From assembly GCA_965246885.1 (NCBI GenBank), contig OZ251992.1, positions 1 through 64,000 of the forward strand: a stretch of DNA of 64,000 nucleotides, written 5' to 3'. Below, piece by piece: positions 28,329 to 48,331 of this stretch; the first letter of the stretch is position 1; every line of letters begins with the position of its first letter. The DNA comes from Abditibacterium sp. GTDB taxonomy: Bacteria; Armatimonadota; Abditibacteriia; Abditibacteriales; Abditibacteriaceae. The position numbers and the translations under genes were made by a program. A model generated the notes under the pieces. It was not told the DNA's origin, made no database searches, and saw only the letters and a program-made list of their open reading frames with translations.

Positions 28329-30455
28329 CTAAACGGGGGTGCCTTGGAGCCAAACGGCACAGGCGCTCCATTCATCGGGCAAGGGGCAGTGGAGAGTGCC
28401 GTTCGCGATGCGCGGCGCGGCTTCGCTTCCGGCCTTCGCAAAGACGGCGGCGATGCGCCACTTTTGGCCGTCGGGCAAGGGGACGTCAAGGGTGTCAGGG
28501 GCGGCACCTGCGAAGCGGTGGCACACGACGAGGGCGCCTGCGTCGCTCCAACGGAGCACGCCCTGCCAGCCGGTCGGGTGGCTATGGGAGGCCACTTCAG
28601 GCCCAAAGCGGCGCGTGCACCCGTGCGCGATGACGGGCCACACTGCCCGATAAAAGGCGCTTCCGCGCATGACGATATCCCACTGAGAAGCGTCCAATTG
28701 GAGCACATCGCCCGACAAGCACATGCGACCCAGTAGCGTGGCGGCAAGGGAGTAGACTATGCGCGCCTCGTCGTCCTCGGCGCGCACGACGGCCCACACC
28801 TGCGACTTGCGCGGCAAGATGGCGCGGTGCAAGTTGGCGGCGATAATGGGAATAGAGCGGAGTTCGTGCGCGTCGGAAAAGGAGGCTTGGTCGCACAAAG
28901 CCATCATGGACGGCTCTAAACGGTGCCCGCCGGACGCGCAGTTTTCAATCACAAGGTCGGGGAGTTCTTCGCGGATGCGGCGCCAGAAGCGTTGCACTCC
29001 GTCCAAGTGCTCGCGCAACGCTTCACCCAATGACTCACTTCCGTCGGCGCCCAAGCCGATGGTGTCATTGTAGTCCACCTTCAGGTAGCCAATGCCGGTG
29101 CGCCGCAGAAGTCCGATGACGCGCTCGGCGAAATAGTCGTGCGTCCACTCGTCGCGGAAGTCGAAGAAGCGGCGCGTTTGCGTGGTCAGGGGAACGCCGT
29201 CGCGGGCGAGGAGATGGGCGGTGTGCTCGTGATACGCGCGCGAGTTCGGCTCGCAGTTCTCGAACTCGAACCAAATACCGACCCCCATGCCGCGCTCACG
29301 GATGGCGCGCGCAGTCGCCGCGAGGCCATGCGGGAACCTATCGGTGTTTTCGTCCCAGTCACCGTGCCCGATGTACCAACCGGCGTCCATCACCAGCACC
29401 TGAGCGACGCCTTGCAAACGGTCAGCGAGGGCGAGCAAACTTTCGTGCGTGGGATTGCCCCAACTGGTGCACCACTCGTTGAACACAATGGGCAAATCGG
29501 CTTCAACGGGCGCAGGGCGGGCCGGTTCGCGCTCTTGAAAAGAGACGAGGCGCTCGCAAATGGCCTCCACGCCGCACGCCGCGCACGCGAGAACCGCAAC
29601 AGGAGTTTCGAAAGTCATGCCGGGCCTCACCAGCTTTTGCCAATGTCCCAACTCGCGGTCGGCCAGCCCCCCGGAAAGCGAGAGCTTGTCGTCGCGGCGC
29701 CCCGCTTCCAGTTGCCAAGAGCCGGGAAGCGCGAGGTGAACGCCCCAACTCACGCCCGCCCCGGTGTCCTCCAGCGCCACAAAGGGGAAATGCCCGCGCA
29801 CGGGCATCGAGCCGACTTGCCCCCAGCGCAAGGAGTTCTCGACCGGCCCCGCGTGGAAGACTTCAAGCTGCAAGTCTTCCAAAGGCTCGCTCCTCAGCCT
29901 TCCTTCGGCGCACCACGCGCTTGCCAAACGGTGCAACACCAAGCGTCCGCTTGCATCGTCGGGCGCAAAGGGTGACAAGCCGCCGATGCAAAAGCTCGAC
30001 AGCATCTCCAAAATGAGATCGGCGCCCCCGGTGTTCTCGAAAACGGTGTGGGACACGAGGAAATTCTCTCCGGCGCGCCATGAAAGATGGTGGTGGCAGG
30101 CGAAACCGCCCGCGCCCGCGAGTGTCGTCACGACGGTCGTTGCGTTGCCCTCGCGCTCAACGTGTTGCCCTTGGAAAGCAAGCCCCGCGACCGATGCACC
30201 GTTGCGGAGCGTCTTGCCTCCAGCGAAAAAGGGCGGGTAGGCGTCGCCGCCAACGTGGAGTTGAACGAGGCTGTCCACGCCCCAAGCGGGCGCGCCCGAC
30301 GCGGCTTTTTCCCTTGCGGGCGTCAAATCTGCCTCGCGTGCCGAGGGAAAGAGCAGCAGACCAACGGCGCCGCGCGCCGCGTCGCGCACAAAGACGACGG
30401 CGGTATCGCCCGCCGCGAAGCGGGACAAAAGGGAAAGGTGCGAGGGAAGTTGCAT
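28329..30455 (-). CDS. Alpha-galactosidase, GH36
   Basis: FNEWCTSW, MDAGWY, RFPHGL, GIWFEFE, YLKVDYN, IENCASGG.R, SFSD; no signal peptide. Confidence 0.9.
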   Translation of the reverse strand: MQLPSHLSLLSRFAAGDTAVVFVRDAARGAVGLLLFPSAREADLTPAREKAASGAPAWGVDSLVQLHVGGDAYPPFFAGGKTLRNGASVAGLAFQGQHVEREGNATTVVTTLAGAGGFACHHHLSWRAGENFLVSHTVFENTGGADLILEMLSSFCIGGLSPFAPDDASGRLVLHRLASAWCAEGRLRSEPLEDLQLEVFHAGPVENSLRWGQVGSMPVRGHFPFVALEDTGAGVSWGVHLALPGSWQLEAGRRDDKLSLSGGLADRELGHWQKLVRPGMTFETPVAVLACAACGVEAICERLVSFQEREPARPAPVEADLPIVFNEWCTSWGNPTHESLLALADRLQGVAQVLVMDAGWYIGHGDWDENTDRFPHGLAATARAIRERGMGVGIWFEFENCEPNSRAYHEHTAHLLARDGVPLTTQTRRFFDFRDEWTHDYFAERVIGLLRRTGIGYLKVDYNDTIGLGADGSESLGEALREHLDGVQRFWRRIREELPDLVIENCASGGHRLEPSMMALCDQASFSDAHELRSIPIIAANLHRAILPRKSQVWAVVRAEDDEARIVYSLAATLLGRMCLSGDVLQLDASQWDIVMRGSAFYRAVWPVIAHGCTRRFGPEVASHSHPTGWQGVLRWSDAGALVVCHRFAGAAPDTLDVPLPDGQKWRIAAVFAKAGSEAAPRIANGTLHCPLPDEWSACAVWLQGTPV

Positions 30456-30461
30456 GATAAT

Positions 30462-31799
30462 TTATGGGCGCGCATCCATCGAATACACTTGGGCGCGCGT
30501 GAGGCGCGCGCCCCGCCCGACGAAGGTGATGCCCTCGCTTCCCTCGGACGGAAAGACAAGCGCCGCGCCATACAGGGCACCGCCCTCGGCGAAGACTTCA
30601 ACGGAGCATCGGTCAACGAAAAAGTGCAAGTGGAACCGCCCATCGCGCACATCCAATGGCGCGCTGAAACACTGCGCGAAGTCAGTTTCAAAGCCGCTTT
30701 GTCCCGCTTGGCGCCGGTCGAGACGCAATTCGCCGGACGGCACGTGATAGACCACGCGCGTCGCCTCATTTTCGCCCACCCGCAAGGCAAAGCCGACTTC
30801 TTCTTCTTCGAGCGCAGAAATATCTATTTCGGCTTCAAGCGCGTACGCTTCGCCGCGAAAGGAAATGCCACGCTCGTCGAAAGTCACCGACTCGCCGCGT
30901 GCGGCCAACAGTTCGCGCGGCGGGTGTTGGCGCAGGGTGCCATCGCGCAATGACAATTCGCGCGGAAGCGTCATGGCGCCGCGCCAGTTCTCGGCTTCGG
31001 TGGGGATTTTTCCGGCATAAGCCCAGTGGCTCATCCAACCGATGATGACGCGGCGTCCGTCGGGGGCGTCGCTCCAACTTACGGCGGCGTAATCGTCCGG
31101 CCCAAAGCTCAGGGCATGCGGCCCAGAGTGCGGCGTGAAGCGGGTGCCGTCGAAGTCGCCCACGTAATAGCGGGTGCAACTGGCGCCAACGGGCGCGTTT
31201 GGCACGATGAACGAAACAAGCAGCACCCAACTCCCGTCTATCTCGAACAAGTCGGGGCACTCCCATATCCAAGTCGCATCGGGCGCGGGGAAAGAGGAAA
31301 GCAGCGTCCAAACTAGCAGGTCGGGCGAAGCATAAAACTGCGCGTCGCTGCCCGCCGCCACGACCATCCGCCAACCATCGGCGTAGCGGAAGATTTTCGG
31401 GTCGCGGAAGTCGGGCCGGTCGCTTGTTAAAACGGGGTTGCCGGTGTATGTCTGCCATGTGCGGCCCTCGTCGTCCGAAAAAGCGAGGCTTTGCACTTGG
31501 CCATACGCGGCGTGGGCGTGCGTAAAGCAAGCCACCAACTGCTCGCGTCCATTACGCTCGCACACGGCGGCGCTGCCCGACCAAATATCGCCCAAGGCAT
31601 CGGGCCAAAGCGCGACGGGGAAGTGTTGCCACGTCACCAAATCGCGCGAAGCGGCGTGCCCCCAGTGCATCGGCCCATGCTTGAGTTGCGTCGGTTCGTG
31701 CTGATAAAACAGATGCCACCAGCCCTTTTGGCAAACAAGGCCGTTCGGGTCGTTGAGCCAGCCGCGCGGCGGCGCAAAATGATAGATCGGGCGATACAT
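30462..31799 (-). CDS. Beta-fructofuranosidase/levanase, GH32
   Basis: WLNDPNG, HLFYQ, WGHA, WSGSA, FRDP, WECPD, D.CSVEVF; no signal peptide. Confidence 0.93.
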   Translation of the reverse strand: MYRPIYHFAPPRGWLNDPNGLVCQKGWWHLFYQHEPTQLKHGPMHWGHAASRDLVTWQHFPVALWPDALGDIWSGSAAVCERNGREQLVACFTHAHAAYGQVQSLAFSDDEGRTWQTYTGNPVLTSDRPDFRDPKIFRYADGWRMVVAAGSDAQFYASPDLLVWTLLSSFPAPDATWIWECPDLFEIDGSWVLLVSFIVPNAPVGASCTRYYVGDFDGTRFTPHSGPHALSFGPDDYAAVSWSDAPDGRRVIIGWMSHWAYAGKIPTEAENWRGAMTLPRELSLRDGTLRQHPPRELLAARGESVTFDERGISFRGEAYALEAEIDISALEEEEVGFALRVGENEATRVVYHVPSGELRLDRRQAGQSGFETDFAQCFSAPLDVRDGRFHLHFFVDRCSVEVFAEGGALYGAALVFPSEGSEGITFVGRGARLTRAQVYSMDARP

Positions 31800-31837
31800 G
31801 GGTTGATTCAGTCTTCCATTTAGTTAATTTTTCGGTT

Positions 31838-32032
31838 GACGCACACAGTTTTGTCGTCGGCGCGCATAAATCAACGGTTGGCGCGCATAAATCAACGGTT
31901 GATACACCTCTATCGGTCGTTGGCGCGCATAGTTCTTTCACTGACGCACCTCCATCCCTCACCGACGCGCATAGTTCTTTCACTGACGCACCTCCATCCC
32001 TCACCGGCGCGCATACCTCTTCGGTTGGCGCG
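31838..32032. repeat. Degenerate 21-bp-period tandem array (9+ units) containing a 42-bp higher-order duplication
   Basis: GGCGCGCATAAATCAACGGTT x2; [G(G/A)CGCGCATAGTTCTTTCACT + GACGCACCTCCATCCCTCACC] x2. Confidence 0.85.
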
Positions 32033-32042
32033 GGTCTCTGTC

Positions 32043-34229
32043 TCATGGCGCCAGTTTCATGCGGCCCCAATGGGTGCGGTCAGTGGAGTTTTTGTCGCTG
32101 CCGTTCCACATCAGTTGCCGCTCGCGTCGGTTCGCGGCGCCGTCGTCTACAGCCAAATCGAAGCGTAGCTCCCGCCCCGCGCGCGGGGCGGGAGCTACGC
32201 CCAGAGCCGCCCAAGGGATGGCGGCTTCAAGGGTATACCCTTTGCCGTCCACACCCGGCACGACGACAGTTTTGCACTGGGTGGGCGCGAGCGCATGGGC
32301 GATAAAGGCTTGGCCGGAGTGTCCCGCGCCCAAAAGCACTTGGCGGTCGGAAAACAGCAGTGGGCCGCCGCCGTCTAAGCCCTCGCTGCCAATGAACAGT
32401 TCCAAGCCGTCCCCGTTCCACAGGTTCGCGCCTTCTTGCGCGTTGTTCATGGGCGTGGGGTCTTTGACGATGGCGAGCAAGTAGAAGTTGTCGTCGTCCC
32501 AGCAGGTCTTGAAAGCGGCCCCCAAGTTCTCGCCGCCAGTTCCCTGCACCATCCGGGCAGGCGAGATGGTCTGCGCGGGCAACCCCCCAAAGCCCGCGCC
32601 AGTGCCGTCGAAGGCGACGGGGCCAATTGCATGGGGGCAGACAAGTGTTTTGGCGGCGTCGCTTCCAAGTTGGAAGCGTGGGTTATTCCACACAAACGGC
32701 GCGCGTTCTCCCAGAGAGACGCGGTAGATGTCGCTATTGGTGCGGGTCATTTCGGAGAGGGCGTCGCTCCAAGGGCGGTCAGCGACGCTGAGCAGTCCGG
32801 TGTTGTTGCCTTCGCCGTGCAAGCCCTCGAACCAGCGCCCGGTCGCGCTTTGGTCAACGAGGGTGAACCACTCCGTTCCCACCACGAACCCCAGCGAAGC
32901 GGCACCCTCGACGTAGTTCCGGTAGGCCAAGCCGCGCTCGCGCTGGGTGTTGACGGCCTGCACGCCGCCCAAACCCGACTGCGCGGGCGCGCTCCAATAG
33001 AACTCCGACAGCATCAGGGGCCGCTCGCCGCTCCACCGGTAGATGCGCTTCAACAGGTCGCTATCCAGAGCATCGGTGTAGTAGTTGAACGAGACGACAT
33101 CGCAGTAGCGCCCCATCAAGCGGCACAGCGTTTCGTTGTTGATGGTGCCCGCTTGCAAGCGGTTGCCAAGCAGCAGATGGTGCCGGTCGTAGCGGTGGAA
33201 GGTGTCGGCGAGCAGGCGGAAGTAGGAATTGAGAAAGAGCGCGGTGTAATCGCCCATATCCGCCGCCGCGCGGGGCGTGCGCACGGGTAAGGGCGCGTCG
33301 TCCAGCGCCTCGAACGAGGCGTAGTTTACTCCCCACGCCGCGTTGAAAGCGGCGATGGTCTGGTATTTGGCATGGAGCGTCACCACCAGTTCGCGCTTGC
33401 AAGCGTGGCTCCGGTCGAGAGTGGGCACGACGCGGGGCACATCCTCCAGCAGGGGTTCGTTGGACAAATAATAGCCGATGAGAAGTGGGTCGTCTTGCGC
33501 GGGCGCGACGTATTTAGCGAAAGCGGCGGCAAGTGTGGGCGCGTTGGACGGCTCGAAAGGGTCGAAGACGCCGTTCACGCCGGGGAGAATCGGCAGGTTA
33601 ACCGGCAGATGCCCGACGAAAGGGAAGTTGGCGGCGTGCTCGCTTTGCGTGGGAGGCGAGAAGGCGCCCGCCGAGTTGAAGCCCCACCCTTTGAGCCGCC
33701 CAATCATGCGCGCGGTGTAGCTTTCGAGGTCGTAGGGCCTGCCGGTCTTGCGGATGAGGTTGGCGAGGTGGAAGGAGAACGCGCGCGGGTCGTCGGCGCG
33801 ATACGCGGAAGCGTAAGCGCCCGCGCGTGGGGGGAGCCACTCGTAAGCGCTCTCGCGCCCCGCGACGAGGGTATATTCGTCGCCCGGCGCGAGCACGCAC
33901 ACGCCCAAATGAAAGAAGGCGTCGCCCATCGGATCAACGAGCAACCAGCGCCCGCCGTGCCGCTCGACGTGGAAAAAACCCGTTGCACGCAGTCTTAACG
34001 CTTTGCCGCTTCCGCTTAGGCCGCCGAAACGGTTGGCTTTGAAGGCGGGCGCAGGTTTGGCGCGCGCTTTGAGGCGCTCGTCGGCGCGCAGTTGCGCTTC
34101 GTCGCTCACCTTGCCGGGGTAAGCGGCGCCAACGGGCTGGCCGAAGCGGTCGAGGAGCGGCGCGGCGCGGGCCAAGGGGGGAGCAAGCAACGGCGCCAGA
34201 AGCAAAGCGGCAAGAAACAAGCGGTTCAT
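32043..34229 (-). CDS. Exported GH50 (beta-agarase)-like clan GH-A hydrolase with C-terminal CBM9-like domain
   Basis: Signal peptide; DRFGQ, ATGFFHVE, WLLVDP.G, WGFN, IGYYLSNEP, VSFNYY, LSEF, WF..VDQ..GR; C-terminal WDDDNFY, DGLELF, YTLEAAIPW. Confidence 0.75.
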   Translation of the reverse strand: MNRLFLAALLLAPLLAPPLARAAPLLDRFGQPVGAAYPGKVSDEAQLRADERLKARAKPAPAFKANRFGGLSGSGKALRLRATGFFHVERHGGRWLLVDPMGDAFFHLGVCVLAPGDEYTLVAGRESAYEWLPPRAGAYASAYRADDPRAFSFHLANLIRKTGRPYDLESYTARMIGRLKGWGFNSAGAFSPPTQSEHAANFPFVGHLPVNLPILPGVNGVFDPFEPSNAPTLAAAFAKYVAPAQDDPLLIGYYLSNEPLLEDVPRVVPTLDRSHACKRELVVTLHAKYQTIAAFNAAWGVNYASFEALDDAPLPVRTPRAAADMGDYTALFLNSYFRLLADTFHRYDRHHLLLGNRLQAGTINNETLCRLMGRYCDVVSFNYYTDALDSDLLKRIYRWSGERPLMLSEFYWSAPAQSGLGGVQAVNTQRERGLAYRNYVEGAASLGFVVGTEWFTLVDQSATGRWFEGLHGEGNNTGLLSVADRPWSDALSEMTRTNSDIYRVSLGERAPFVWNNPRFQLGSDAAKTLVCPHAIGPVAFDGTGAGFGGLPAQTISPARMVQGTGGENLGAAFKTCWDDDNFYLLAIVKDPTPMNNAQEGANLWNGDGLELFIGSEGLDGGGPLLFSDRQVLLGAGHSGQAFIAHALAPTQCKTVVVPGVDGKGYTLEAAIPWAALGVAPAPRAGRELRFDLAVDDGAANRRERQLMWNGSDKNSTDRTHWGRMKLAP

Positions 34230-34261
34230 TGGGAAGAGAAAAGGGCGCCCCCGCCGCACCC

Positions 34262-36670
34262 TTAAGGGACGCGCGGAGCAGTGGAGGGATGCACCACAAG
34301 CGGGTCGTTGCCGGTGATGGGCGCGAGGGGAAAACCGGGAAGCGCGGAGATGGCATCGCCCCGGTCGTCATAGACGGCGTTGTCGGTTCCGGCCTGAGCT
34401 TTAGTGGTGTCGCGTCCGCCGCGCGCGCCCGGTGCGCCCGCCAGATAGGTCACGACGACCGATTTGGACGCGGGCGCTGTCGCCGTGAGTCGGATGTGTG
34501 TCGCGTCCACGATGCGAACACTCGCCGGATTGCCGAGCGCGCCGCCGTCTATCCCGATTTGAAACCCGGAGGGCGTGCCACCCGCCGCGCTCACCAGTTT
34601 GGTGCCGCCGTTGGGCACGACGACCAAATCCACGACGGTCGCGCCGTTCTCGATGTGCCAAGAGGAGCGCGCCCTGTCCACTTCCGGGCCAAGGCCGGAA
34701 AAGGGCGCAGCGCCAATGGCATGGGCGAGGGTTTGCGCGGCGCGACTGGCGAGGATGCCAAGCCCGGAATCGTCGTCGGAAAGATGGGTGCCGTCTTGCG
34801 TTGTCTCATCGAGGGCAAAGCAAAGCACGCCGACGGGCTTGCCTTGCGCGGCGCGCGAGCGCGCCCATTCAACATCGAAGGAGCGGATGCCGTCGGCGTT
34901 GCCGCCCACGCCCCAATCGCCGTTGAGGGGAAATATGAAGAACTTGTAGGGCCAAGGGCCGCCCGGCGCGCTTTGCACGGCGGCGTCGTATTGTGCGAGC
35001 AGTTGGTCGAGGGCCGCGTAGCGCGCTTCGCGGCTCATCCCGACATCGCCCTGACCGTTGCCCCACACCCCGAACTGCGGGCGGGCGCGCTGAATGAAGC
35101 GCTTCCAGCGCGCCCAACGGTCGGTGTCGCCCAAGAACTCGTGGATGGGCGAGCCGCCGACCGCGAAGTTGCCCACGCCAACCGGCCCTTGTGACAGCAA
35201 GGCGAGGCGCTCACTTAAGCGGTTTTCGCCCCAGTTGTCGCGCGACGTGTTGGGCGCGGCGGGCGTCCAGCGCGTTTGCCAGCCTTGCGGCTGCGAGTTG
35301 TCCTGATACCCGGCAGTGTTTTGGTTGAGGTCGGAATAAGCGCGCACATATCCGCCGACTTGCGGGGCGAACGAGCGCCCGCCGCCGCCGTCGTCGCGCA
35401 TCTTTTGCAGGATGGATTGCCCGCCAACGCCCACCACGACACCGAGGGAAAAGCGGCGGTGCAAGCGCTTGGCGGGCGACCATTCGCCCCCGCTTTTCCA
35501 TGACACTTCCGCGTCGTAGTCGGCGAAGCCGTTGGGGATGCCCGCCACGTCGCCCCGCCAACTTTGCCCGTTGCCAACGGCTTGGGCAACCGTCGCCCAA
35601 GCGGTGCCGCCCTTGGCGGCGTCGGGGAGCGGTTCGGGCGCGCCCCAAGGCACGACGCGCATCCGAATATCGGCGCCCGGCCCGACGCGCGTGCCCCAAA
35701 AGCGCGCCTTGGACGTGGCGGCGGGAAAGGGCGCGCGTGGCAAGACCTGCCCAAAGCCGTCCATGTCCACAAGGACATCGTCGCCGACCTTGGCGGGGAG
35801 AAGCGAAGGCGACGCGGCGAATTTGCCGCTTATGGTGCCCGCTTTGCCGCTCACCAGTTCGTCCAACTTGCCATCGGTAATGGTGCCGGGGTAATAACGG
35901 TCGTCGCGGGCGGCGCTCAAGGCGACGACATCGCGCGCGTCGGCCCCCGCGAAAAGGCGGCTCATCTGGGGGCGCGTCAGAGCGCCGCCGTTCCAGATAA
36001 CAACCCCTTGCACCGGTTGCTTCCAGAAGGTGAAGGGCCATTCCGGTTGCGATTTGAGGAGCGCGCCGCCGATGCGCGCGGTTTTTCCGGTGATGCCCTT
36101 GAAGCCGCCGTTGGTAATGCCGCAGTCCATCAAGCGCGCCCCCGCTTCGTCCACGCCCCACAGTTCGACGCGCCCGCTTCGACAGAGCAGGGCCAGCCCA
36201 TGCACGCGCCCGTCGTCCATGCCCGCTTGCCCGACCAAGGGCGTCGCGCCGCCCTCGCCAAACAGCAGGTCGCCCCCGGCAGGAACGCGCGCCGAAGCGC
36301 TCGTGCCCGCGTCATCCTTGGCCGTTGCCACGCAAGTGTTGGCGAAGTGCCCGTATTTCCAAGCGTTGGGGTATTGCGCGCACCACGTGAGAGAGAGGTG
36401 TCCGGCGTCAGTAAAAAGTGTGTTGGAGGGCGTTCCGATGGAAAGCACGGTGCCGGTTTGGTAGTTCCCCGGCGCGATGCGGGTCACGAGGAACACGCTC
36501 CAATCGCCATCGGAGCGCAGCGACACGGCGGGGAGTTCGACGCTGCCGTCCTTCTTTTCGGCGCTGTCAAAAGCAAAGGCGGAAGCGGGGGCGGCGCGCT
36601 CGGTGTGGAAGGGCGCGGCGGGGGCGGCACCCGCGCAAACGGCGGCGAGCAGGAGGGGAAGGAGTTTCAT
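34262..36670 (-). CDS. Exported multidomain protein: LamG/ConA-like N-terminus + SGNH (sialate O-acetylesterase/CE6-like) esterase
   Basis: Signal peptide; GGQS, NFAVGGSPI, WGNGQGD and DGTHL blocks of the SGNH fold. Confidence 0.65.
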   Translation of the reverse strand: MKLLPLLLAAVCAGAAPAAPFHTERAAPASAFAFDSAEKKDGSVELPAVSLRSDGDWSVFLVTRIAPGNYQTGTVLSIGTPSNTLFTDAGHLSLTWCAQYPNAWKYGHFANTCVATAKDDAGTSASARVPAGGDLLFGEGGATPLVGQAGMDDGRVHGLALLCRSGRVELWGVDEAGARLMDCGITNGGFKGITGKTARIGGALLKSQPEWPFTFWKQPVQGVVIWNGGALTRPQMSRLFAGADARDVVALSAARDDRYYPGTITDGKLDELVSGKAGTISGKFAASPSLLPAKVGDDVLVDMDGFGQVLPRAPFPAATSKARFWGTRVGPGADIRMRVVPWGAPEPLPDAAKGGTAWATVAQAVGNGQSWRGDVAGIPNGFADYDAEVSWKSGGEWSPAKRLHRRFSLGVVVGVGGQSILQKMRDDGGGGRSFAPQVGGYVRAYSDLNQNTAGYQDNSQPQGWQTRWTPAAPNTSRDNWGENRLSERLALLSQGPVGVGNFAVGGSPIHEFLGDTDRWARWKRFIQRARPQFGVWGNGQGDVGMSREARYAALDQLLAQYDAAVQSAPGGPWPYKFFIFPLNGDWGVGGNADGIRSFDVEWARSRAAQGKPVGVLCFALDETTQDGTHLSDDDSGLGILASRAAQTLAHAIGAAPFSGLGPEVDRARSSWHIENGATVVDLVVVPNGGTKLVSAAGGTPSGFQIGIDGGALGNPASVRIVDATHIRLTATAPASKSVVVTYLAGAPGARGGRDTTKAQAGTDNAVYDDRGDAISALPGFPLAPITGNDPLVVHPSTAPRVP

Positions 36671-36688
36671 GGGGTGGGCGCCCGCGCC

Positions 36689-38665
36689 TTACGGAGCCGG
36701 ATAGAGTTGGCTCATCGGCACGACCTGCGCGCTTTGATGGCCGGGGCGCATCCACGACAAAACGGCGTTGGCGCCTTGGGTGTCGTCGAAATACTCCATC
36801 TTGAGCGCGTATCTGCGCCCCGCTTCAAGGGCGATTGTCCCGCTGCCATTGGAAAAGGGGCCGCCGACCCAATGATCAATGAGGGGTTTCCCGTCCACCC
36901 ACAAGCGCACGCCGTCGTCGGTGTTGGTTTGGAAGGAATAGGTGCCGCCTTCGAGGGCTTGGACTTGCCCTGTCCAACGCACCGACCAGTGGTCTGGCCC
37001 CACGCCCGCCATCGGTTTGCCGTCGCTTCCGCTTGGGCTGCCCTCGCCCCACCAGTAGTTGACGTTGGCGTCGGTGCGCGTGGCCATCAACTTCTCAAAG
37101 TTCTGACCGGCATAATACTCCGCGTGGAGGCCCGTTCCGTCCCCCAACGCGGGGTAAAGCTGACTGGTAGGAACCGTCTCGAACCCCTTAGCGCCGGGAC
37201 GCTTCCATTCCAATGTGCCTTTGCCCGCACCGAGCAGTTCGGCTTTAAAGGGATAGCGCTGTCCAGCCACAAGAGGGATAGCCTGAGCGCCCACCGTCTT
37301 GCCGTTCACCATCACGCGCAATTTGCCGCTTGCGGGGGCGCGAAAACTGTACAATCCGCCTTCCAAGGCTTGCAATTCTCCGGCGAAGCGGGTTGCGGGA
37401 GCGGTTCGGGCGCCAAAATCAACCGTTGCGGCTTGTGCCGTCCCGATCGGTTTATGCCATCCTTTGTCGGAATAGTATGTGGCGGTCACTCCGGCACCCA
37501 ATCCGGGGATAGCGGCGCTTGGGTCGGCGAACAAGGCGCGAAAACGCGCCGCCGATTGCGGGAACTCGTTGGTCTCGTCCTCGCTCAGGCCGGGGGAGAG
37601 TTGATGGTGCCCATCGCCCGCTTGCACGTCGAAGTGGCAGGCGAAATACACGTTGTTCGTGGGGTCGTTGATAAAGGCGTGCATCTTGTCCACGAACGCC
37701 ACGTTATCCAAACCGCCGTGCCCGTCCTCGCGTTTAGAGATGCTCCATTCCGGCAGCGCGAAGAGCTTACCGTGCGCGCGGGCGAAGTCGCTCCACTCTT
37801 TGAGTCCCATCTGTCCGCCATACGTGAAGTCGTTCCAAGCGCGCTCGCGGCGCCCTGCGGCTTCTTCTTTGGTGGCGCCGTCGGGGATGGGGTAGGTGTC
37901 TTTGGCCCACGACTCATCGTAAACGTCTAACCCCACGATGTCCACCACGTCGTCGCCGGGGTAGGCTTGAGCGGAAGGGAACTGTTGCCAGCCCAAGGCG
38001 GGGTTCCAGCAGAACTGGAGCTTTTCGGCGCCCTTAACGGCGTGCATCGTCCCGACGATTTGGCGCCAATAGGCGGCCCACGCTTTGGGGTCGTCGCTGG
38101 CGCGGTGCGTGTACCAGCCGCCGTTGAACTCCCAGCCCAAACGCAAGACGCTGTCACCCAGCCCGTAGTCCACGAGGTTTTGCGCGAGGGCTTTGAAGTG
38201 CGCGTTGTAGTCCCCCTTGGCACCCGCTTGCAACGAGACGGGCTTGCCCGCATCCGCCCCACGCTTGGCGCCGCTCCTGTCCCAGCCACCGGGAAGAAGC
38301 GGGATGGACAAAATCAGGCGGCGGCGCGGGTCGGCGTGCTTCCAGTCGCGCCATTCGCCCAGTTGCCAGCCGCCGCCCTCGATGTTGTTTTCCCACGCAT
38401 CGTTTGGCTCGAAGTCTTCGGCCCACACGACGGGTCGGTTAATCCACCGGCTGTATGCCAAGTTCGCCTTGGCGCCGCCGCTCTGATTGGCCGCGCCCCA
38501 CCGATACGCCGCTATATAAGGCGCCTTAGCGAGGGGAAAATCGGCGAGAGCGGGGTGCGGCGCGGGCGCGGTGTCACCGGGCGCTCCGGCGGCGGGCGCG
38601 GCGAGGGTGCAGCCGGAGGACAACAGCAACGCAGCGCCCGAAAGAAGCAGGGGGAGAAGTTTCAT
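36689..38665 (-). CDS. GH26 glycoside hydrolase with two PA14 domains, probable lipoprotein
   Basis: LSSGC lipobox; LRLGWEFNGGWY, WNP, YPGDDVVDIVGLDVYD, HGK..ALPEW; PA14 motifs WSVRWTG, TDDGVRLWVDG. Confidence 0.88.
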   Translation of the reverse strand: MKLLPLLLSGAALLLSSGCTLAAPAAGAPGDTAPAPHPALADFPLAKAPYIAAYRWGAANQSGGAKANLAYSRWINRPVVWAEDFEPNDAWENNIEGGGWQLGEWRDWKHADPRRRLILSIPLLPGGWDRSGAKRGADAGKPVSLQAGAKGDYNAHFKALAQNLVDYGLGDSVLRLGWEFNGGWYTHRASDDPKAWAAYWRQIVGTMHAVKGAEKLQFCWNPALGWQQFPSAQAYPGDDVVDIVGLDVYDESWAKDTYPIPDGATKEEAAGRRERAWNDFTYGGQMGLKEWSDFARAHGKLFALPEWSISKREDGHGGLDNVAFVDKMHAFINDPTNNVYFACHFDVQAGDGHHQLSPGLSEDETNEFPQSAARFRALFADPSAAIPGLGAGVTATYYSDKGWHKPIGTAQAATVDFGARTAPATRFAGELQALEGGLYSFRAPASGKLRVMVNGKTVGAQAIPLVAGQRYPFKAELLGAGKGTLEWKRPGAKGFETVPTSQLYPALGDGTGLHAEYYAGQNFEKLMATRTDANVNYWWGEGSPSGSDGKPMAGVGPDHWSVRWTGQVQALEGGTYSFQTNTDDGVRLWVDGKPLIDHWVGGPFSNGSGTIALEAGRRYALKMEYFDDTQGANAVLSWMRPGHQSAQVVPMSQLYPAP

Positions 38666-38677
38666 GGCGATGGAGGG

Positions 38678-40516
38678 TTAGTTGACGACGACATCGTCGA
38701 GGTTGATCCACTGGTTGCCCGCCGCGTTGGAGTAGAACGAAAGTTCCAAAGTTCCGCTTGTGACGTTGACGGTGGTGGTTATTTTCTGCCACGTGCTCGC
38801 GGCGGGAATGTTGACGACGGCCACGTTGCTTCCGTCATAGTATTTGACGGCCATCTGGCAGGCCGCTTGTCCGCCACTGCTTTTAATCCACGCGCTGATG
38901 GTATGGGGGCCGTTGGGAACGGTGACTTGCTGATAGAGCGTGGTTTGGTAGGGGTTGGGCGACCAGTTGTCGCAGCCCCAACTGCCGGTGTGCGCTTCGC
39001 CCGCGCCGTTGGCCGCGAAAACAGCGTTGCCGTTATTGCCGACCCACAAGTTCCAGCCGCTCAGGTTGCCGGTCTCGAAGCCGGAGTTCTGGAGGTAGTT
39101 CGAGATGACGGTGGGAACGGCGCTGACCTCGGAAGAGAAGGCGCTCAGACCGTTGGAGTTGACCGCCTTGACTTTGTAGTAGTAGCGCGCGCCGGGAGAG
39201 AGGCCGGTATCCGCAAAGGAGGTGGCGGTCACGCCAGTAGCGATGGGCGTGGCCGCTTCGCCGCCTGCGCTTGTGCCGCGATAGACGTTGTAAGTGACGG
39301 CACCGGGCGCCATCGTCCACGACAGCGCGACTTGTCCACCGCCTGCGGTGGCTTTGAGTCCACCGGGAACATTGGGCACCGCCGCGCTGCCCGCGTCGGA
39401 AAACAAGCGCTTGTAAAGAGCCGCCGAGTTGGGGAAGGTCGTGGCGCCAAAGATACCCGACAGGCTGCTGTTGCCATCGGCGGGCGCTTCAAAGTAGCAG
39501 GCGACGGCGACGTTCTTGGCGGGGTCGTTCAGCCAGTTATACATCCGTTGGATATAGGAGGTGTTGTCGCCGCCACTGGGGTGGTTGCCGTCGTTCAGTT
39601 GCCACAAGCCCCATTCGCCCACGACGACCGGTTTTTTGTGGGCGCGCGCCAAGTCCGCGAGAACGTTGATGCGCGGCAGTTCGGAGTTAAACCATGCGGC
39701 ATCGCGCTGGGCCTGCGTGGGCTGCGTGGTGCCAACGGGGTAAAGGCCGCCGTAGGCAACATCGTAGGTGTCGAAGCCCACGTAGTCCACCCAAGCGTCG
39801 CCGGGGTAGTAGTTGGGCGAGTAGACCTGCACGTTGGAATCGGTCGGGTTCCAGCAGAACTTGAGGACGCCGCCACTATCGTTGGCGCGCATGGTGTTGA
39901 CGATGTTGCGCCACGCCGCGATGTAGTTGGTGGGCATGTTCGACATCGCGTTGAGGTTGCCAAAGGGGTTCCAACCGCCATCGAACTCGTAGCCCAAGCG
40001 GATGATGACCTTTTTAAAGCCGAGCGAGTTCACTTCCTTGGCGTAGTTGGCGAAATACGCCATCGTCGCGGGGTCGTTGTTGGCTTCGAGTTGCCACTCT
40101 TGGTTTTCCCACGCGAGCTTTTGATCCCACGTGTCGTTGCCGTTGGGGTCGGCGGGCATTTGGCCCATCCCTAAAATGACGGTGGGAAGGTTGGCGCCCT
40201 TGCGCGTCTGCATCGTAGACCAAGGGATGTTCCAGTTGACGTGCTGGGCGCAATCGTACCAATCGCCCGGCCCCCATCCCGGATCGGCTTCGGCGCCCAA
40301 ATTGGCGGTGCCCAACCAAGCGCGGTATTTGGCCCAGTTGCCCGTCCCCTGCCCGGCGGGGCCGGAAAGGTCGGCATCGTAGGCTTGGTTGTAAAGATAA
40401 ACCGACTGCTCGAAGCGGGTAGCGGCGGGTGCCTTGGCGGGCGCTCCGACAAGGGCAAGGGCGCCGAGGGCGCACGCTGTTACTGTAACTTTGGCGGAAA
40501 AGCGGATGGTGTTCAT
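38678..40516 (-). CDS. Exported GH26 glycoside hydrolase + fibronectin type III + galactose-binding-like CBM
   Basis: Signal peptide; IRLGYEFDGGW, WNP, YPGDAWVDYVGFDTYD, KPVVVGEWG; FN3 (VALSW, YNVYRG, YYYKVKAVN); NSGFE..NLSGW CBM ending LDDV. Confidence 0.88.
   Translation of the reverse strand: MNTIRFSAKVTVTACALGALALVGAPAKAPAATRFEQSVYLYNQAYDADLSGPAGQGTGNWAKYRAWLGTANLGAEADPGWGPGDWYDCAQHVNWNIPWSTMQTRKGANLPTVILGMGQMPADPNGNDTWDQKLAWENQEWQLEANNDPATMAYFANYAKEVNSLGFKKVIIRLGYEFDGGWNPFGNLNAMSNMPTNYIAAWRNIVNTMRANDSGGVLKFCWNPTDSNVQVYSPNYYPGDAWVDYVGFDTYDVAYGGLYPVGTTQPTQAQRDAAWFNSELPRINVLADLARAHKKPVVVGEWGLWQLNDGNHPSGGDNTSYIQRMYNWLNDPAKNVAVACYFEAPADGNSSLSGIFGATTFPNSAALYKRLFSDAGSAAVPNVPGGLKATAGGGQVALSWTMAPGAVTYNVYRGTSAGGEAATPIATGVTATSFADTGLSPGARYYYKVKAVNSNGLSAFSSEVSAVPTVISNYLQNSGFETGNLSGWNLWVGNNGNAVFAANGAGEAHTGSWGCDNWSPNPYQTTLYQQVTVPNGPHTISAWIKSSGGQAACQMAVKYYDGSNVAVVNIPAASTWQKITTTVNVTSGTLELSFYSNAAGNQWINLDDVVVN
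40478..40490. promoter_or_regulatory. Candidate LacI-family operator (copy 1)
   Basis: TGTTACTGTAACT; perfect GTTAC-T-GTAAC palindrome sharing 10 bp with the site before the LacI gene. Confidence 0.4.
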
Positions 40517-40548
40517 GGGTGTGTGGCGGTCATTCATATCTCCCCAGA

Positions 40549-40581
40549 TAAAAGCGCGCCGGGGATTGTAATCCCCGGCGC
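40549..40581 (-). terminator. Intra-locus stem-loop/terminator after the second prepilin-like gene
   Basis: GCGCCGGGGATT-NN-AATCCCCGGCGC followed by GCTTTTAT on the minus strand. Confidence 0.6.
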
Positions 40582-40603
40582 CAGACAAGTTCGCACGCGC
40601 GGC

Positions 40604-41404
40604 TCAGTCGGCGTCCACGCTCCACGCGGTGTAGGCGCCATTAGGCGCTTCGTGGACGAGGCGGTCGTCGTTGAGGGCTTTGACGTGGCCATCGGTGAAG
40701 AGAACGTTGGTCGTGTTCAAATGGCGCTCGGAGGCTCCACTGCCCCACTGGCGCAAGCAGTAGCGGTGCCCGTCGTCGCCGATTTGGAAGTCGGGGCCAT
40801 AAGCGGTGTCGAAAATCACGGCGTAACCTTGGTCTGTTGAGACGTTGGGAACGCAGTAACCATCCACGACCCAGATCGTGCCGGAGGGGTCTTGCATCTG
40901 GGACAGGGTCGAGTAGTTCGCAGGCCCGCCGCCGCCCGCGCCGTAGTAAGCGTTGATGGCGTAGGAGCCGTATGAGGTGTTGGGGACGCCCGACGTGTAG
41001 TCGTACTCCTTATAGGGGATGTAGGCCTTGTTGCCGCTCTTGGTCGAATCGAACGGCAGCAACGTGTCGCTGGGGCACACGAACAGTTGCTTGCTCTTGA
41101 GGTAAGGGGAAACGGCGTCCATCCACTTGTAGTTGTCGGCGTCCGAGGCGCCATCCCCGCCGGGGCCGTAGCGCTTCTGCACTAACTGCTCGTCGTAGTC
41201 CTGCGAGTATTGCAGCAGACCCAAACCGATCTGCTTGAGGTTGGATTGGCAACTGGCGCGGCGGGCGTTCTCGCGGGCGCGTGCAAAGGCCGGGAACAAG
41301 ATAGCGGCAAGAAGGGCGATGATGGCGATAACTACCAAAAGTTCCACCAAAGTAAATCCTTTCCGGGTGCCCGAAGTAGCGGTTTTGAAGGTGCAAGTGT
41401 TCAT
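40604..41404 (-). CDS. Prepilin-type N-terminal cleavage/methylation protein, DUF1559 / H-X9-DG family (paralogue 2)
   Basis: [47 protein letters not shown]-terminal [15 protein letters not shown]; 16-aa leader. Confidence 0.93.
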
Positions 41405-41440
41405 GGTTGTGGGTTGCCTCATAGAGACGAAAACGGTGGG

Positions 41441-42265
41441 TTACCCGTTGTTGGTTTGCGAAACTCCCAACGAGGTGTTCCAGTTGCCATCGCAGGCACT
41501 GGGTGCGGTGGCTCCGTCAACATTGGCGTTGTTGATTGTCCACATGCAAACGGGACTGCCCGTTGCAACGGGCTTGAGGGATTTGACATGACCGTCCATG
41601 AAAAGGAAGTTGGTGGTGCCCAAGTGCCCTTGCAGGTTTTCCATGTTGCCCTTGTCGTAAGCATCGGGATTGTCCGCGTTCTTGCTTTCGGTAATCATGA
41701 TGACGGTCGCAACGCTGGGTATTTCCGCCATGCTCCGCGTCTGAAAGGCACCGCCGCTATACAGTTCGATCATCGGCCTTCTCGAACCGGGGCCGTTGCT
41801 CGAAGCCGCTTCTTGCCCACCGTTGGCCATGTAGGAGATGGGCATCGCTTGCGTTGCAACCGCGCCCGTATCGGAAAAGCGGGTGTCGTAACCGCCGGGG
41901 TCGGGGGCGCCGTTCATGTTGCCACTGGCTGTGTTGGAAGGGCACTTGAAGATTTGCGCGCTCTTGACGTAAGGTTGCAACAGGGTTTGAAAGGGCACGC
42001 GGGAAACGCCGGGAGTGCCGCCGTAATACCAGCGCACCGGCAGAACTTTCTCGTCGTAGTCCTGCGAGTATTGGAGAGCACCTAATCCAATCTGCTTGAG
42101 GTTGGATTGGCAGGAACTGCGTCGGGCGTTCTCGCGGGCACGCGCGAAAGCCGGGAACAAGATAGCGGCAAGTATCGCTATGATAGCGATAACTACCAAT
42201 AATTCTATAAGGGTAAATCCTTGGCGGCTCAAAGCCTTTGGTTGAAAGTTGCTGAATGTGTTCAT
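41441..42265 (-). CDS. Prepilin-type N-terminal cleavage/methylation protein, DUF1559 / H-X9-DG family (paralogue 1)
   Basis: [61 protein letters not shown]; 16-aa leader. Confidence 0.93.
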
Positions 42266-42316
42266 GGGTCTCTCTAAAGTAAATAAAAGAGGCAGTTGCT
42301 TTTGTTTGGTGGCGAG

Positions 42317-43330
42317 TTAAACTGAGCGCGGCGCGCTCACCGAAGCGCGCTCGACCAGATGAACCGGAGCGACGCGGCAGCAGTTCGCGGCCTCCTCGCC
42401 GCGCCCTAACCCGATCCACGCTTCGACGGCCAAGCGCCCGATGTTGGCGTAGCCAAAGCCCACGCTTGAAAGGCCGCGATGCCGCGTGTCCTGATCGTCC
42501 ACGCCAATTAAAGACAGGTCGCGCGGAACATGAAGCCCCGCTTGAGCGGCGGCATCCCACAATTGGAGCGCCAGAAAGTCGTTGATGCACGCCACGCCGG
42601 TGATACCGGCGCCCTTTAGATGTGCCAGCACGTCGGGCCGCAATTCCCATGCGGCAGTCGCGCCCTCAATGATGGGCGCAGCAGATAAGCCCAGCCGCTC
42701 CGCTTGCAACGCGAAGGCCCGTTGGCGGGCGAGGTCGTCAAAAGCGCCCAGTGAACTGGGGCCGGACAGATAAGCGATGCGCCGATGGCCGTGCGCGTGC
42801 AAATGCTCGACGGCCAAACGCATGATCTCTTCGTTGTCCGGGTCAACCCACGCCACGTTCGCGGGCACGTCGCGGCGGTAACACGCCACCGCCGGGATGC
42901 CGTGCTCTTCCAGCTTTTCCAAGATGTCGTGCCATTGAAGCACATCCGGCGAAATGAAGATGAAACCATCAGAGCGCCGGTCGAGAAAGCGGATGGACGC
43001 GTGGCTCATCCAATCCTGCGCGTCGCGTAGCATCACCACCAAGTCGTAAGAGTGCGCGTGCGCTTGCGAGCACAGCCCCTCGAAGGTTTGGGAGTCAATC
43101 GGGTTGCCCGACACGTTCGAGGTGAAAGGAACAATGCCAATCGAGCGCGTTTGCACGTGGCGATTTTGCAGCGCCGACGCAACGGGCACATACCCCAAGT
43201 CGCGCACCGAAGCCATCACGCGCTCAAAAGTGTCATCCGCCACAAGTCCCTTGCGCCCGCGCAACACACGCGACACCGTCATCGGAGAAACGCGGGCATG
43301 TTCGGCTACTTGTCGGATGGAAGGACGCAT
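42317..43330 (-). CDS. LacI-family transcriptional regulator
   Basis: SIRQVAEHARVSPMTVSRVL HTH; GHRRIAYL, NDFLA, VPRDLSLIGVDD, LVERAS. Confidence 0.93.
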   Translation of the reverse strand: MRPSIRQVAEHARVSPMTVSRVLRGRKGLVADDTFERVMASVRDLGYVPVASALQNRHVQTRSIGIVPFTSNVSGNPIDSQTFEGLCSQAHAHSYDLVVMLRDAQDWMSHASIRFLDRRSDGFIFISPDVLQWHDILEKLEEHGIPAVACYRRDVPANVAWVDPDNEEIMRLAVEHLHAHGHRRIAYLSGPSSLGAFDDLARQRAFALQAERLGLSAAPIIEGATAAWELRPDVLAHLKGAGITGVACINDFLALQLWDAAAQAGLHVPRDLSLIGVDDQDTRHRGLSSVGFGYANIGRLAVEAWIGLGRGEEAANCCRVAPVHLVERASVSAPRSV

Positions 43331-43412: not shown

Positions 43413-43615
43413 ACGCGCCGATGACGGAGAGACGCGCGCCAACAGTTGAACGGTACGCGCCAACAGTTGAACGGTACGCGCCGACGGTTGAACGGTGCGC
43501 GCCAACAGTTGAACGGTACGCGCGACGACCGAATTGTACGCGCCGACGATTGAACGGTACGCGCCGACGATTGAATGAGGCGTGCCAACCGAAGATAGAA
43601 GCGCGCCAACGACAG
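43413..43615. repeat. Degenerate 21-bp-period tandem array (~9-10 units)
   Basis: (A/G)CGCGCC(A/G)AC(A/G)GTTGAACGGT repeated; one 20-bp unit at 43518. Confidence 0.88.
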
Positions 43616-46726: not shown

Positions 46727-48331
46727 TCACCCAGCCCGGTGCTCACGCAGCATAACCCCGTAGTCCGCACGCCAGATGTCTTCGTCGGCTTGGGCGTTTT
46801 GGAGGGACTGGAGCGGGGCGGTTTGGTCTTCGGGCTTGTCCGCTCCGGCGAGGGATTGCAGGGCTTGGAGCTTGGCGGACTCGGCGTCGAGGAGTTGGTC
46901 GCGCGACCAGAGGGCCTCGTCGGAGTGGGGCGCGAGCGCTTGCACGGCGTCTACGACGGCTTGTTGGGCGGGCACGACTTGCGCGCCAACGGCGGCGGCG
47001 AAGCGTTCGGGTGTGGTGCGGTCGGATTGGTCGAGGGCGGTCTGGACGGCTTTGGACTGTCGCACTATCGGGCGCACGTGGGCGGCGAAGGCGTTTAAAT
47101 CGGCGCGGTTGGGGTCGTAAAAGAGCCACCACCCCAGTAGTAGCAAGGGAACGCCAAAGACTGACGGCCAAAACCAAAGTGGCGTGCGCGCTTCGGGCGG
47201 TAGCTCGGAGGCGCGCGGAAAAACGCGGTCGGGCGGGGTTGGCGCTTCGATGACCGGTACCGGCGGCGCGATGGCCGGTACCGGAGGGCGGGTCGCCGGT
47301 ACCGGCGACGGGATGAGCGACGTCGCTGACGGGATGAGCGACGTCGGCGCTTTGGGCGCCGGGGCAGGCGCGGGGCGCTGTGCGGCACGCAGTTCTTGCA
47401 GCCATGCCGTTACGGTTTGCGGGCGTTTGGGCGCGGGGATTTCGAGCGCCCCCGCGACGGCGCGGGCGAGTTGCATGGAGATGAGCGGGTTGCGCTCGTT
47501 GAGCGGCGGGAGCGATACGCCGCTCGCGCGGTCGGGCGAAGGCGGTGGCGGGTCGCCGCACAGGGCGTGGTAGAGCGTCGCGGCGAGCGCATACACGTCG
47601 GTGAAAGGGCCAAAACGCGCGCGGCGCCCGTATTGTTCGAGCGGCGCATACCCCGGCGTGAGCAGTTGCGTCATCGGGGTGGTGCGGTCGGGCGCAAACT
47701 CACGCGCCGTGCCGAAGTCAATCAACACCGCGCGCCCCTCGCAAAGCAGGATGTTGTCCGGCTTGATGTCGCGGTGCAACAGCCCCGCTTCGTGAACGCG
47801 CGACAGCGCTTCGCCGACCGTGTAAATAATGCCGAGCGCCTCGTCGGTCGGCAACGGCCCGCCGTTCGCCAAGCGGTGGCCCAGCGACTCGCCGCGCAGG
47901 AACTCCATCGCAAAGTAGGCCGTGCCTGCTTCGGCCCACACGCCAAACGCCCGCACGATGGAAGGGTGCGAAAAGCGCGCGAGCGTGGCCGCCTCATCCC
48001 GAAAAGCGGCCAACTCGTGCGCCCACTCCGCTTCCGTCACGCCGCGCGGGGGCAATACTTGCCCCCCTTGCCGCGTCGAGCCGAAGGGGAAGAACTCCTT
48101 GACCGCCACCTCGCGCCCCAGTGCCACCTCGCGCGCCCGATAGGTCAGGCCAAAGCCGCCCGCACCGAGCAACTCCTCCACGACAAACGCGCCGCCGCGC
48201 AAGGGCGTTCGGGGCGCGAGCGCGGGCGCCAATGGCTCCAGCGCCGCGCCCGCCAAGTCCAACGGCGAGCCGCACGCCGCGCACACGAGCGCGCCGTCGG
48301 GGTTGGGCGTTTGGCAGACCGGGCAAAGCAT
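46727..48331 (-). CDS. Hanks-type Ser/Thr kinase: zinc ribbon - kinase - Pro-rich linker - TM - helical domain
   Basis: CPVC..CAACG; LGAGGFG, VAVKE, HRDIKPDN, DFG, TPGYAPLE, DVYA. Confidence 0.93.
   Translation of the reverse strand: MLCPVCQTPNPDGALVCAACGSPLDLAGAALEPLAPALAPRTPLRGGAFVVEELLGAGGFGLTYRAREVALGREVAVKEFFPFGSTRQGGQVLPPRGVTEAEWAHELAAFRDEAATLARFSHPSIVRAFGVWAEAGTAYFAMEFLRGESLGHRLANGGPLPTDEALGIIYTVGEALSRVHEAGLLHRDIKPDNILLCEGRAVLIDFGTAREFAPDRTTPMTQLLTPGYAPLEQYGRRARFGPFTDVYALAATLYHALCGDPPPPSPDRASGVSLPPLNERNPLISMQLARAVAGALEIPAPKRPQTVTAWLQELRAAQRPAPAPAPKAPTSLIPSATSLIPSPVPATRPPVPAIAPPVPVIEAPTPPDRVFPRASELPPEARTPLWFWPSVFGVPLLLLGWWLFYDPNRADLNAFAAHVRPIVRQSKAVQTALDQSDRTTPERFAAAVGAQVVPAQQAVVDAVQALAPHSDEALWSRDQLLDAESAKLQALQSLAGADKPEDQTAPLQSLQNAQADEDIWRADYGVMLREHRAG
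47247..47351. repeat. In-frame 21-bp tandem repeats in the kinase linker
   Basis: CGGGATGAGCGACGTCG x2 and CCGGTACCGG x3 at 21-bp spacing; encodes TSLIPS x2 and PVP heptads. Confidence 0.7.

Follow-up and report, generated by a model that had tools for sequence, protein, structure and literature searches.

Pilin-like proteins encoded behind sugar regulators as candidate capture subunits of a hemicellulose locus in Abditibacterium

What captures the glycan for a degradation locus that encodes no recognisable receptor or importer is the question raised by positions 28329-43330 of the window, the 64,000-nucleotide stretch of Abditibacterium sp. DNA analysed here. Contig 1 (OZ251992.1) of a 3.55-Mb genome (two contigs, 62.5% G+C) begins with this window. 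In this locus, a LacI-family sugar regulator is followed by genes for two pilin-like proteins of the DUF1559 family and then by genes for glycan-degrading enzymes. The pilin-like pair is read here, with a probability of roughly 0.4, as locus-specific pilin subunits that would bind the substrate, whole or in fragments, on the cell surface and assist in its import.

The locus comprises nine open reading frames (ORFs), all on the minus strand according to the ORF listing and Pfam. A preliminary description of this DNA gave their order as LacI, two prepilin-like proteins, GH26-fn3-CBM, GH26-PA14, LamG-SGNH esterase, GH50-like-CBM9, GH32, and GH36 (GH, glycoside hydrolase family; CBM, carbohydrate-binding module), and this order was borne out. 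The placement of exported enzymes first and the signal-less GH32 and GH36 last also agreed with the translations; signal peptides, present on the four middle enzymes and absent from GH32 and GH36, were judged by eye and not by a predictor. As that description had stated, the locus has no gene for a TonB-dependent receptor, SusD, a solute-binding protein, or a major facilitator superfamily (MFS) transporter, with 0 such domains in the nine proteins by Pfam. The combination of receptor and SusD-like lipoprotein that defines SusC/SusD-type loci was absent from the nine proteins and the flanking genes. The regulator itself gave Pfam scores of 44.4 bits (LacI) and 83.9 bits (Peripla_BP_3). NCBIfam LacI/RbsR-like models align end to end with its 337-amino acid (aa) form (residues 4-332), and the listed 430-aa ORF is over-long, with a false repetitive N terminus produced by reading into a 21-bp tandem array.

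Both pilin-like proteins carry the motif GFTL(I/V)ELLVV, with G at -1, F at +1 and E at +5, followed by a hydrophobic helix. The N_methyl domain scored 34.4 bits in pilin 1 and 32.5 bits in pilin 2 (cut-off 21.2), and TIGR02532 was above its cut-off. DUF1559 (PF07596) scored 52.1 and 57.4 bits, respectively (cut-off 23.3), over profile positions 2-65 of 268 only. The C-terminal H-X9-DG motif was recognised in pilin 1 by TIGR04294 (21.9 bits; cut-off 19) and in pilin 2 by eye; H228, D238, and G239 are invariant across 57 homologues of pilin 2, and the invariant positions in the orthologue alignment are C52, C110, W94, G146, Y148, R227-H228, and D238-G239-H240. The two proteins are 92.7% identical over the N-terminal 55 aa and 30.5% identical in their heads. 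The same division was seen in 56 paralogues from the genome, where median identity was 83.6% for the N-terminal 55 aa and 26.5% for the head, and 52 of the 56 retained H-X9-DG. At the level of sequence, this pattern is that of a common assembly stem carrying locus-specific heads.

An AlphaFold model of pilin 2, built with 57 homologues (pLDDT 88, pTM 0.83), contains a long N-terminal helix (residues 19-69) and an enlarged β-sheet head of ~200 residues. In VIA-align, a search independent of Foldseek, the top matches were PilA4 (Z 5.3), EpsG (Z 4.6), PulG (Z 4.0), ComP, and PilE, and pilins or pseudopilins filled 24 of the first 25 rows. With Foldseek, the best PDB rows were pilins, and none reached E ≤ 0.001 (best value 0.037). 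The model thereby assigns pilin 2 to the type IV pilin fold, and no periplasmic-binding-protein fold occurred among the 50 VIA-align rows or the Foldseek rows listed.

The position of these proteins behind a regulator is a recurrent feature of the genome. PF07596 gave 62 matches, representing 60 genes in 43 merged neighbourhoods, with one match inside a strong opposite-strand gene dropped; the 2651 genes used for these counts came from a simple purpose-made gene caller. DUF1559 was the very next same-strand gene after 15 of the 25 Peripla_BP_3 regulators, with gaps of 18-364 bp (binomial P 5.5e-19; no more than 5 in any of 20000 label shuffles), and lay within two genes of 17. The 270 other genes that lie no more than three genes away from a DUF1559 gene were all scanned with Pfam and compared with 142 genes from random regions, with categories tallied by hand. 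Peripla_BP_3 regulators made up 18/270 of the neighbours versus 1/142 of the random genes (Fisher P 0.003). Degradative carbohydrate-active enzyme (CAZyme) or CBM domains were found in 27/270 versus 4/142 (Fisher P 0.005), a tally that leaves out 11 further borderline neighbours. The arrangement of pilin after regulator therefore exceeds chance by these genome-wide counts, and the co-location of DUF1559 with CAZymes and sugar regulators that the preliminary description had proposed to check was found. Genes after the pilins encode GH5, GH9, GH10, GH13, GH39, GH44, GH71, GH81, GH74-like BNR, and pectate-lyase-fold proteins, as well as large family-less proteins; in one case a GH71 gene comes immediately after the regulator, without a pilin gene between them. 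Genes of the PhyH type (phytanoyl-CoA dioxygenase family) also occur near DUF1559 genes, at six loci (8/270 versus 1/142 random genes).

Two DUF1559 genes are associated with vitamin riboswitches. The sole cobalamin riboswitch match in the genome (3011030-3011139, plus strand) lies 120 bp upstream of a DUF1559 gene (3011259-3012122), which is followed by two exported-protein genes. The sole thiamine pyrophosphate (TPP) riboswitch match (852282-852399, minus strand) is directly upstream of another (851451-852290). No same-strand gene follows the latter, which appears monocistronic, and therefore no enzyme cargo is encoded with it. Genes under cobalamin and TPP riboswitches usually serve vitamin synthesis or transport, and because a pilin-like protein is no biosynthetic enzyme, this placement favours a role in uptake or acquisition rather than enzyme export. 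In addition, the genome's sole SSF symporter gene directly follows a DUF1559 gene (1989828-1992332), with a terminator-like hairpin between them.

Genes for a machine that could assemble such subunits are present outside the locus. One cluster contains two T2SSE ATPases (2398241 and 2400236; PilB- and PilT-like), T2SSF, a prepilin peptidase (Peptidase_A24), a DUF1559 gene, and a further N_methyl protein, and the whole genome has 8 T2SSE and 6 secretin matches. The assembly ATPase, platform, prepilin peptidase, and secretin genes that the preliminary description supposed to lie elsewhere were thus all located. Importers for the inner membrane are few, with 14 BPD_transp_1 matches, including two pairs beside SBP_bac_1 genes, 5 SBP_bac_1 and 2 SBP_bac_8 matches, about 10 MFS genes, and 1 SSF gene. 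A genome-wide search for the barrel and plug domains of TonB-dependent receptors gave 0 matches in a genome that is 92.7% complete.

The arrangement also occurs in other members of the phylum. In three genomes from three families, 16 of 30 regulators (5/10, 8/10, and 3/10) were followed directly, on the same strand, by the pilin N-terminal motif; the count covers the 30 best-scoring Peripla_BP_3 loci, 10 per genome. By record titles, the DUF1559 family occurs in Armatimonadota (including Capsulimonas, Chthonomonadales, Fimbriimonadales, Abditibacteriaceae, and Fervidibacter), Planctomycetota, Verrucomicrobiota, Lentisphaerota, and WS1. Genomes may hold many copies, with published counts of 68 for Planctopirus and 74 for Rhodopirellula, compared with about 60 here. 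Among the papers mentioning DUF1559 in a literature search, none put a function of the family to the test, and the layout of sugar regulator or riboswitch, pilin, and enzyme was not found in print in that search, which covered papers without their supplements. DUF1559 is known as a prepilin-like family with no assigned function; what would be new here is a type IV filament system with subunits specific to nutrient loci.

The enzymes of the locus give an indication of the substrate. Both GH26 assignments are modest (37.5 and 37.0 bits; Pfam cut-off 20.2), cover only part of the profile, and are based on sequence similarity; solved mannanases, including CjMan26C, match at E ~1e-4. The CBM of the first enzyme (GH26a) resembles the galactan-binding module 2xom (E 1e-10). 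The second (GH26b) had been described as a lipoprotein with two PA14 domains. Pfam recognised one PA14, and a second, degenerate stretch was visible only by eye, as was the lipobox-like LLSSGC from which GH26b is probably a lipoprotein. The 802-aa protein has no family match in Pfam, NCBIfam, or PDB sequences, and BLASTP against the genome's LamG + DUF642 + GDSL protein also gave no match (best E 0.58). In its AlphaFold model (pLDDT 74.9), the top Foldseek matches were carbohydrate acetylesterases, led by XAC1771 (7kmm, E 1.6e-17), with further matches to sialate esterases, CE20, CE2, 9ega (E 1e-11), and LamG/pentraxin sandwiches. The motifs G417-Q418-S419 (GQS) and D626-x-x-H629 (DxxH) are unchanged across 17 homologues. 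The earlier assignment as a LamG-SGNH esterase thus holds at the level of the fold, where the evidence identifies a LamG-like domain with an SGNH/CE20-like acetylesterase. The GH50-like enzyme matches Aga50D (4bq2) at E 6.9e-40 over residues 158-518 and has a CBM9 at 65 bits, an assignment made by sequence similarity. Because two GH26 enzymes make up the conserved core together with an acetylesterase and a cytoplasmic GH36, acetylated galacto(gluco)mannan is the likely target of what is probably a LacI-controlled hemicellulose locus.

That core was defined by comparison with a second genome of the same genus, G161, in which LacI, two pilins, two GH26 enzymes, the esterase, and GH36 are syntenic (G161:C19:108000-132000; identities in Table 1). 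The GH50-like and GH32 genes are missing from the orthologous locus, where the esterase gene is followed directly by GH36, and the GH50-GH32 gap in the window, with its tandem array, may mark an insertion. The pilin 2 head has clear orthologues at 45-65% identity and was found at E ≤ 1e-20 in 19/201 genomes of the phylum, including 16/18 other genomes of the family.

Table 1. Features of the locus and its upstream neighbour in window coordinates, with amino acid identity to the counterpart in the congener G161
Feature	Coordinates	Strand	Basis or remark	Identity to G161
GH36 (melibiase-type), no signal peptide (by eye)	28329..30455	-	Pfam Melibiase 113.8 bits	71%
GH32 β-fructosidase/sucrose-hydrolase-like, no signal peptide (by eye)	30462..31799	-	Pfam 279 bits	
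21/42-bp tandem array in the 244-bp gap upstream of GH32	31859..32015	.	TRF	
Exported GH50-like enzyme + CBM9	32043..34259	-	Pfam, PDB sequence match	
Exported 802-aa protein, LamG-like sandwich + SGNH/SASA-type (CE20-like) acetylesterase fold	34262..36670	-	AlphaFold + Foldseek	76%
Exported GH26-like enzyme + PA14 (GH26b)	36689..38665	-	Pfam	67%
Exported GH26-like enzyme + fn3 + CBM4_9 (GH26a)	38678..40588	-	Pfam; true start probably 40537 or 40516	74%
Terminator-like hairpin, 11-bp stem (9 G-C pairs) then T-rich tail	40556..40581	-	Between pilin 2 stop and likely GH26a start	
Pilin-like protein 2, 272-aa ORF (database form 266 aa), class III signal peptide + DUF1559	40604..41422	-	Pfam	63%
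Pilin-like protein 1, 274 aa, class III signal peptide + DUF1559 + H-X9-DG	41441..42265	-	Pfam, NCBIfam	about 40-50% (first G161 pilin)
LacI-family regulator, HTH + Peripla_BP_3, 337 aa from ATG at 43330	42317..43330	-	Pfam, NCBIfam	73%
21-bp-period tandem array, 6.8 copies, between ABC-2 gene and LacI start	43435..43606	.	TRF + sequence reading	
Double ABC-2-type permease, 687 aa, weakly GldF-like	43640..45703	-	Adjoins locus upstream of LacI	

The noncoding elements in Table 1 bear on how the locus may be expressed. Terminator-like hairpins such as that after pilin 2 lie directly 3' of 21/60 DUF1559 genes versus 57/400 random genes (Fisher P 2e-4). When a shared LacI-type palindromic operator was sought in the intergenic regions of the locus, the terminator-like hairpin alone turned up. 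The array at 43435-43606 may be a phased regulatory site. Further arrays of 21-bp period occur at 18197-18383, upstream of an ankyrin gene, and at 59901-59993, near the start of a GH5-like gene; the period equals two helical turns, and all four arrays sit in promoter-type gaps. Their units differ from site to site but have a GCGCGC/GGCGCA-type core in common. Few copies of the exact LacI-array unit exist elsewhere in the genome (36 loose matches and only 2 clusters of at least 3 copies).

Upstream of the regulator, the ABC-2-type permease was considered as the missing importer and rejected because it has no adjoining ATPase, because no counterpart was detected upstream of the LacI orthologue of G161, and because its only NCBIfam matches, to GldF-type and CPBP-type ABC permease models, were weak, both far under cut-off. 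Beyond it, at 46727-51779 on the minus strand, three successive genes encode Ser/Thr protein kinases of 534, 503, and 620 aa, of which two have an N-terminal zinc ribbon. The ankyrin gene (18448-20718, plus strand) encodes a 756-aa protein that consists almost entirely of ankyrin repeats, and the product of the GH5-like gene (59793-62780, plus strand), 995 aa long, gave weak matches to GH5 (cellulase) and CBM4_9; this gene has no adjoining regulator or pilin-like gene.

In the mechanism proposed for the locus, both pilins would be cleaved by a prepilin peptidase and assembled by the shared machine as subunits of a pilus or pseudopilus, where recognition of a mannan-type glycan, or of oligosaccharides from it, would fall to the variable heads. 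Competence pili draw in a polymer, DNA, by retraction; in a similar way, and as may be the case for dextran-binding fibres of Planctomycetes, retraction could bring the bound cargo to a secretin or through it. Outside the cytoplasm, the polymer would be degraded by the exported GH26, esterase, and GH50-like enzymes, and an importer encoded elsewhere would carry oligosaccharides over the inner membrane to the cytoplasmic GH36 and GH32; this inner-membrane step must use a transporter from outside the locus. The hairpin after pilin 2 could give the regulator-pilin pair its own expression level. The preliminary description had taken the pilins for a substrate-specific capture module on a shared machine, and the genome-wide placement and the machine genes found elsewhere support this in part. 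A broader proposal sees in DUF1559/H-X9-DG proteins the exchangeable subunits, at the tip or in the shaft and each specific to a substrate, of a retractile type IV filament that would serve as a general nutrient-import device. Each sugar regulon or vitamin riboswitch would switch on its own pilin, which would catch its ligand outside the cell and pull it through a secretin; we regard this extension as speculative and unlikely.

Several observations weigh against a capture role for the pilins. The structural matches are modest (Z 5.3, E 0.037) and indicate a pilin fold, not a sugar-binding site. About half of the DUF1559 neighbourhoods lack both a regulator and a CAZyme. With a hairpin after pilin 2, a single nine-gene operon is not established and is doubtful; the regulator and pilins may form their own unit, or the hairpin may serve to raise the amount of pilin. 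Conservation is lower in the pilins (63% and about 40-50% identity to G161) than in the enzymes (67-76%), which fits a capture or a secretion role alike. TonB-dependent receptors are found in 62/100 other genomes of the phylum, 9/9 of the family, and 3/3 of the genus, at 1-6 copies each, so relatives with the same architecture carry them; because 9/9 family and 62/100 phylum genomes have receptors, the pilins are not a plain substitute for these receptors. Inner-membrane importers exist elsewhere, among them two ABC sugar-type clusters (near 1.285 Mb and 2.03 Mb), and the earlier statement that there is no conventional importer is true of the locus and not of the cell, given these clusters, the MFS genes, and the SSF gene. 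Among DUF1559 loci of other species, a regulator was directly upstream in only 5 of 67 (Armatimonadota 3/16, Lentisphaerota 2/12, Planctomycetota 0/27, Verrucomicrobiota 0/7, unassigned 0/5). These were the testable loci among 80 from named public genomes, and the search used tblastn with this genome's regulators at E 1e-8, which misses distant regulators; therefore, either the regulator link is lineage-limited or the query was too narrow for distant regulators. Finally, in the Pul system, pullulanase and the pul pseudopilins are under a common sugar regulator, and those pseudopilins serve export.

The Pul precedent leads to the main rival explanation, in which the pilins are cargo-specific pseudopilins that adapt a shared type II secretion machine to the export or display of the downstream enzymes and do not bind glycan. 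The layout of most loci agrees with this, with exported enzymes coming after each regulator-pilin pair, as do the two exported proteins encoded after the pilin in the cobalamin-riboswitch operon, the secretin, T2SSE, and T2SSF genes in the genome, and the presence of EpsG and PulG among the structural matches. NCBIfam also gave weak N-terminal matches to GspG and GspH, but those to GspG (TIGR01710) reached only 33.5 and 34.9 bits against a cut-off of 88.85, over model positions 1-55 of 134, and no gsp machine genes were detected in the locus by Pfam. An export function is harder to reconcile with the TPP-riboswitch pilin, which has no co-encoded cargo, and with the DUF1559 gene that precedes a symporter and not an enzyme, and we know of no substrate-specific pseudopilin; on balance, this explanation appears less probable than capture, although it fits most of the same data.

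Two further explanations place the pilins in neither filament import nor export. They could remain anchored in the inner membrane by their N-terminal helix as periplasmic binding or chaperone proteins that feed shared transporters, in the manner of the archaeal bindosome. Class III signal peptides on Sulfolobus sugar-binding proteins, described in PMC3047682, offer a parallel, and the family is called "solute-binding" in PMC2754498 and PMC4807772 and SBP_bac_10 in Pfam. DUF1559 genes adjoin an SSF symporter and an ABC permease, and the solute-binding proteins of the genome are few (counts given above). Against this, the model has a pilin fold, and the structure-search rows had no periplasmic-binding-protein fold; identity of 84% over the N-terminal 55 aa of the paralogues goes beyond the need of a mere anchor, and a transporter is absent from 15/15 regulator-pilin loci, making such a role quite unlikely. 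Alternatively, the regulator and pilin could form a sensing unit, in which the pilin would signal, for instance by importing the inducer of the repressor or reporting its presence, and would not serve bulk capture. The conserved core of regulator and pilin, followed by variable genes, would suit such a unit, as would the terminator-like hairpin that closes the pair here and its enrichment after DUF1559 genes. However, copies under riboswitch control have no need of a protein sensor, Pfam and NCBIfam showed no signalling domain in the pilins, and no precedent is known to us; a sensing role is considered very improbable.

The fixed position of DUF1559 genes, after sugar repressors and before exported glycan enzymes, or after the sole B12 and thiamine riboswitches, gives a predicted ligand for each such copy. 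If correct, a capture role for the pilins would explain how glycans are captured without Sus-like systems in these bacteria, many of which are polysaccharide degraders, and nutrient acquisition would join the roles of type IV filaments. An import filament, if real, would be a third means, next to porins and TonB-dependent receptors, of bringing nutrients through the outer membrane, and would give a function to one of the largest families of unknown function in the Planctomycetes-Verrucomicrobia-Chlamydiae (PVC) and Armatimonadota phyla. Should the pilins serve export instead, they would be the first cargo-specific pseudopilins, which would likewise be new.

Among known systems, the two proteins belong by sequence to the prepilin-type paralogous family defined by DUF1559/SBP_bac_10 (PF07596) and TIGR04294; both pass the Pfam cut-off, and pilin 1 also that of TIGR04294. 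The locus resembles the SusC/SusD loci of Bacteroidota in having a regulator, then a locus-specific capture slot, then exported glycoside hydrolases, and in the many parallel loci per genome. The likeness is one of layout only, as the TonB-dependent receptor and SusD are missing and the slot holds pilin-like proteins. With the Pul pseudopilins and competence pili, the source genome shares the pilin fold, prepilin peptidase, ATPase, and secretin; in those systems, however, the pilin genes are part of the machine operon and are not multiplied per substrate, whereas ~60 private pilins are scattered among nutrient loci here. Pilins that bind polysaccharide exist in Ruminococcus and Caldicellulosiruptor. 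On crateriform structures of Planctomycetes, pili-like fibres bound gold-labelled dextran, and Boedeker et al. (2017) speculated on uptake; the subunits are not named in the available text (PMC5394234). These hosts are rich in DUF1559 proteins and their fibres bind a polysaccharide, but they belong to another phylum than the source genome, and the connection between DUF1559 and the fibres is inferred. The archaeal bindosome of Sulfolobus is the closest parallel for nutrient proteins that carry pilin signal peptides. Its proteins are binding proteins of ABC transporters and are encoded with them, whereas the proteins in the window have a modelled pilin fold and no transporter in their locus; what the two have in common is nutrient-related surface proteins with pilin-type signal peptides, assembled in the bindosome by the type IV filament-like Bas system (PMC3047682) and, as proposed here, by a shared pilus or pseudopilus machine.

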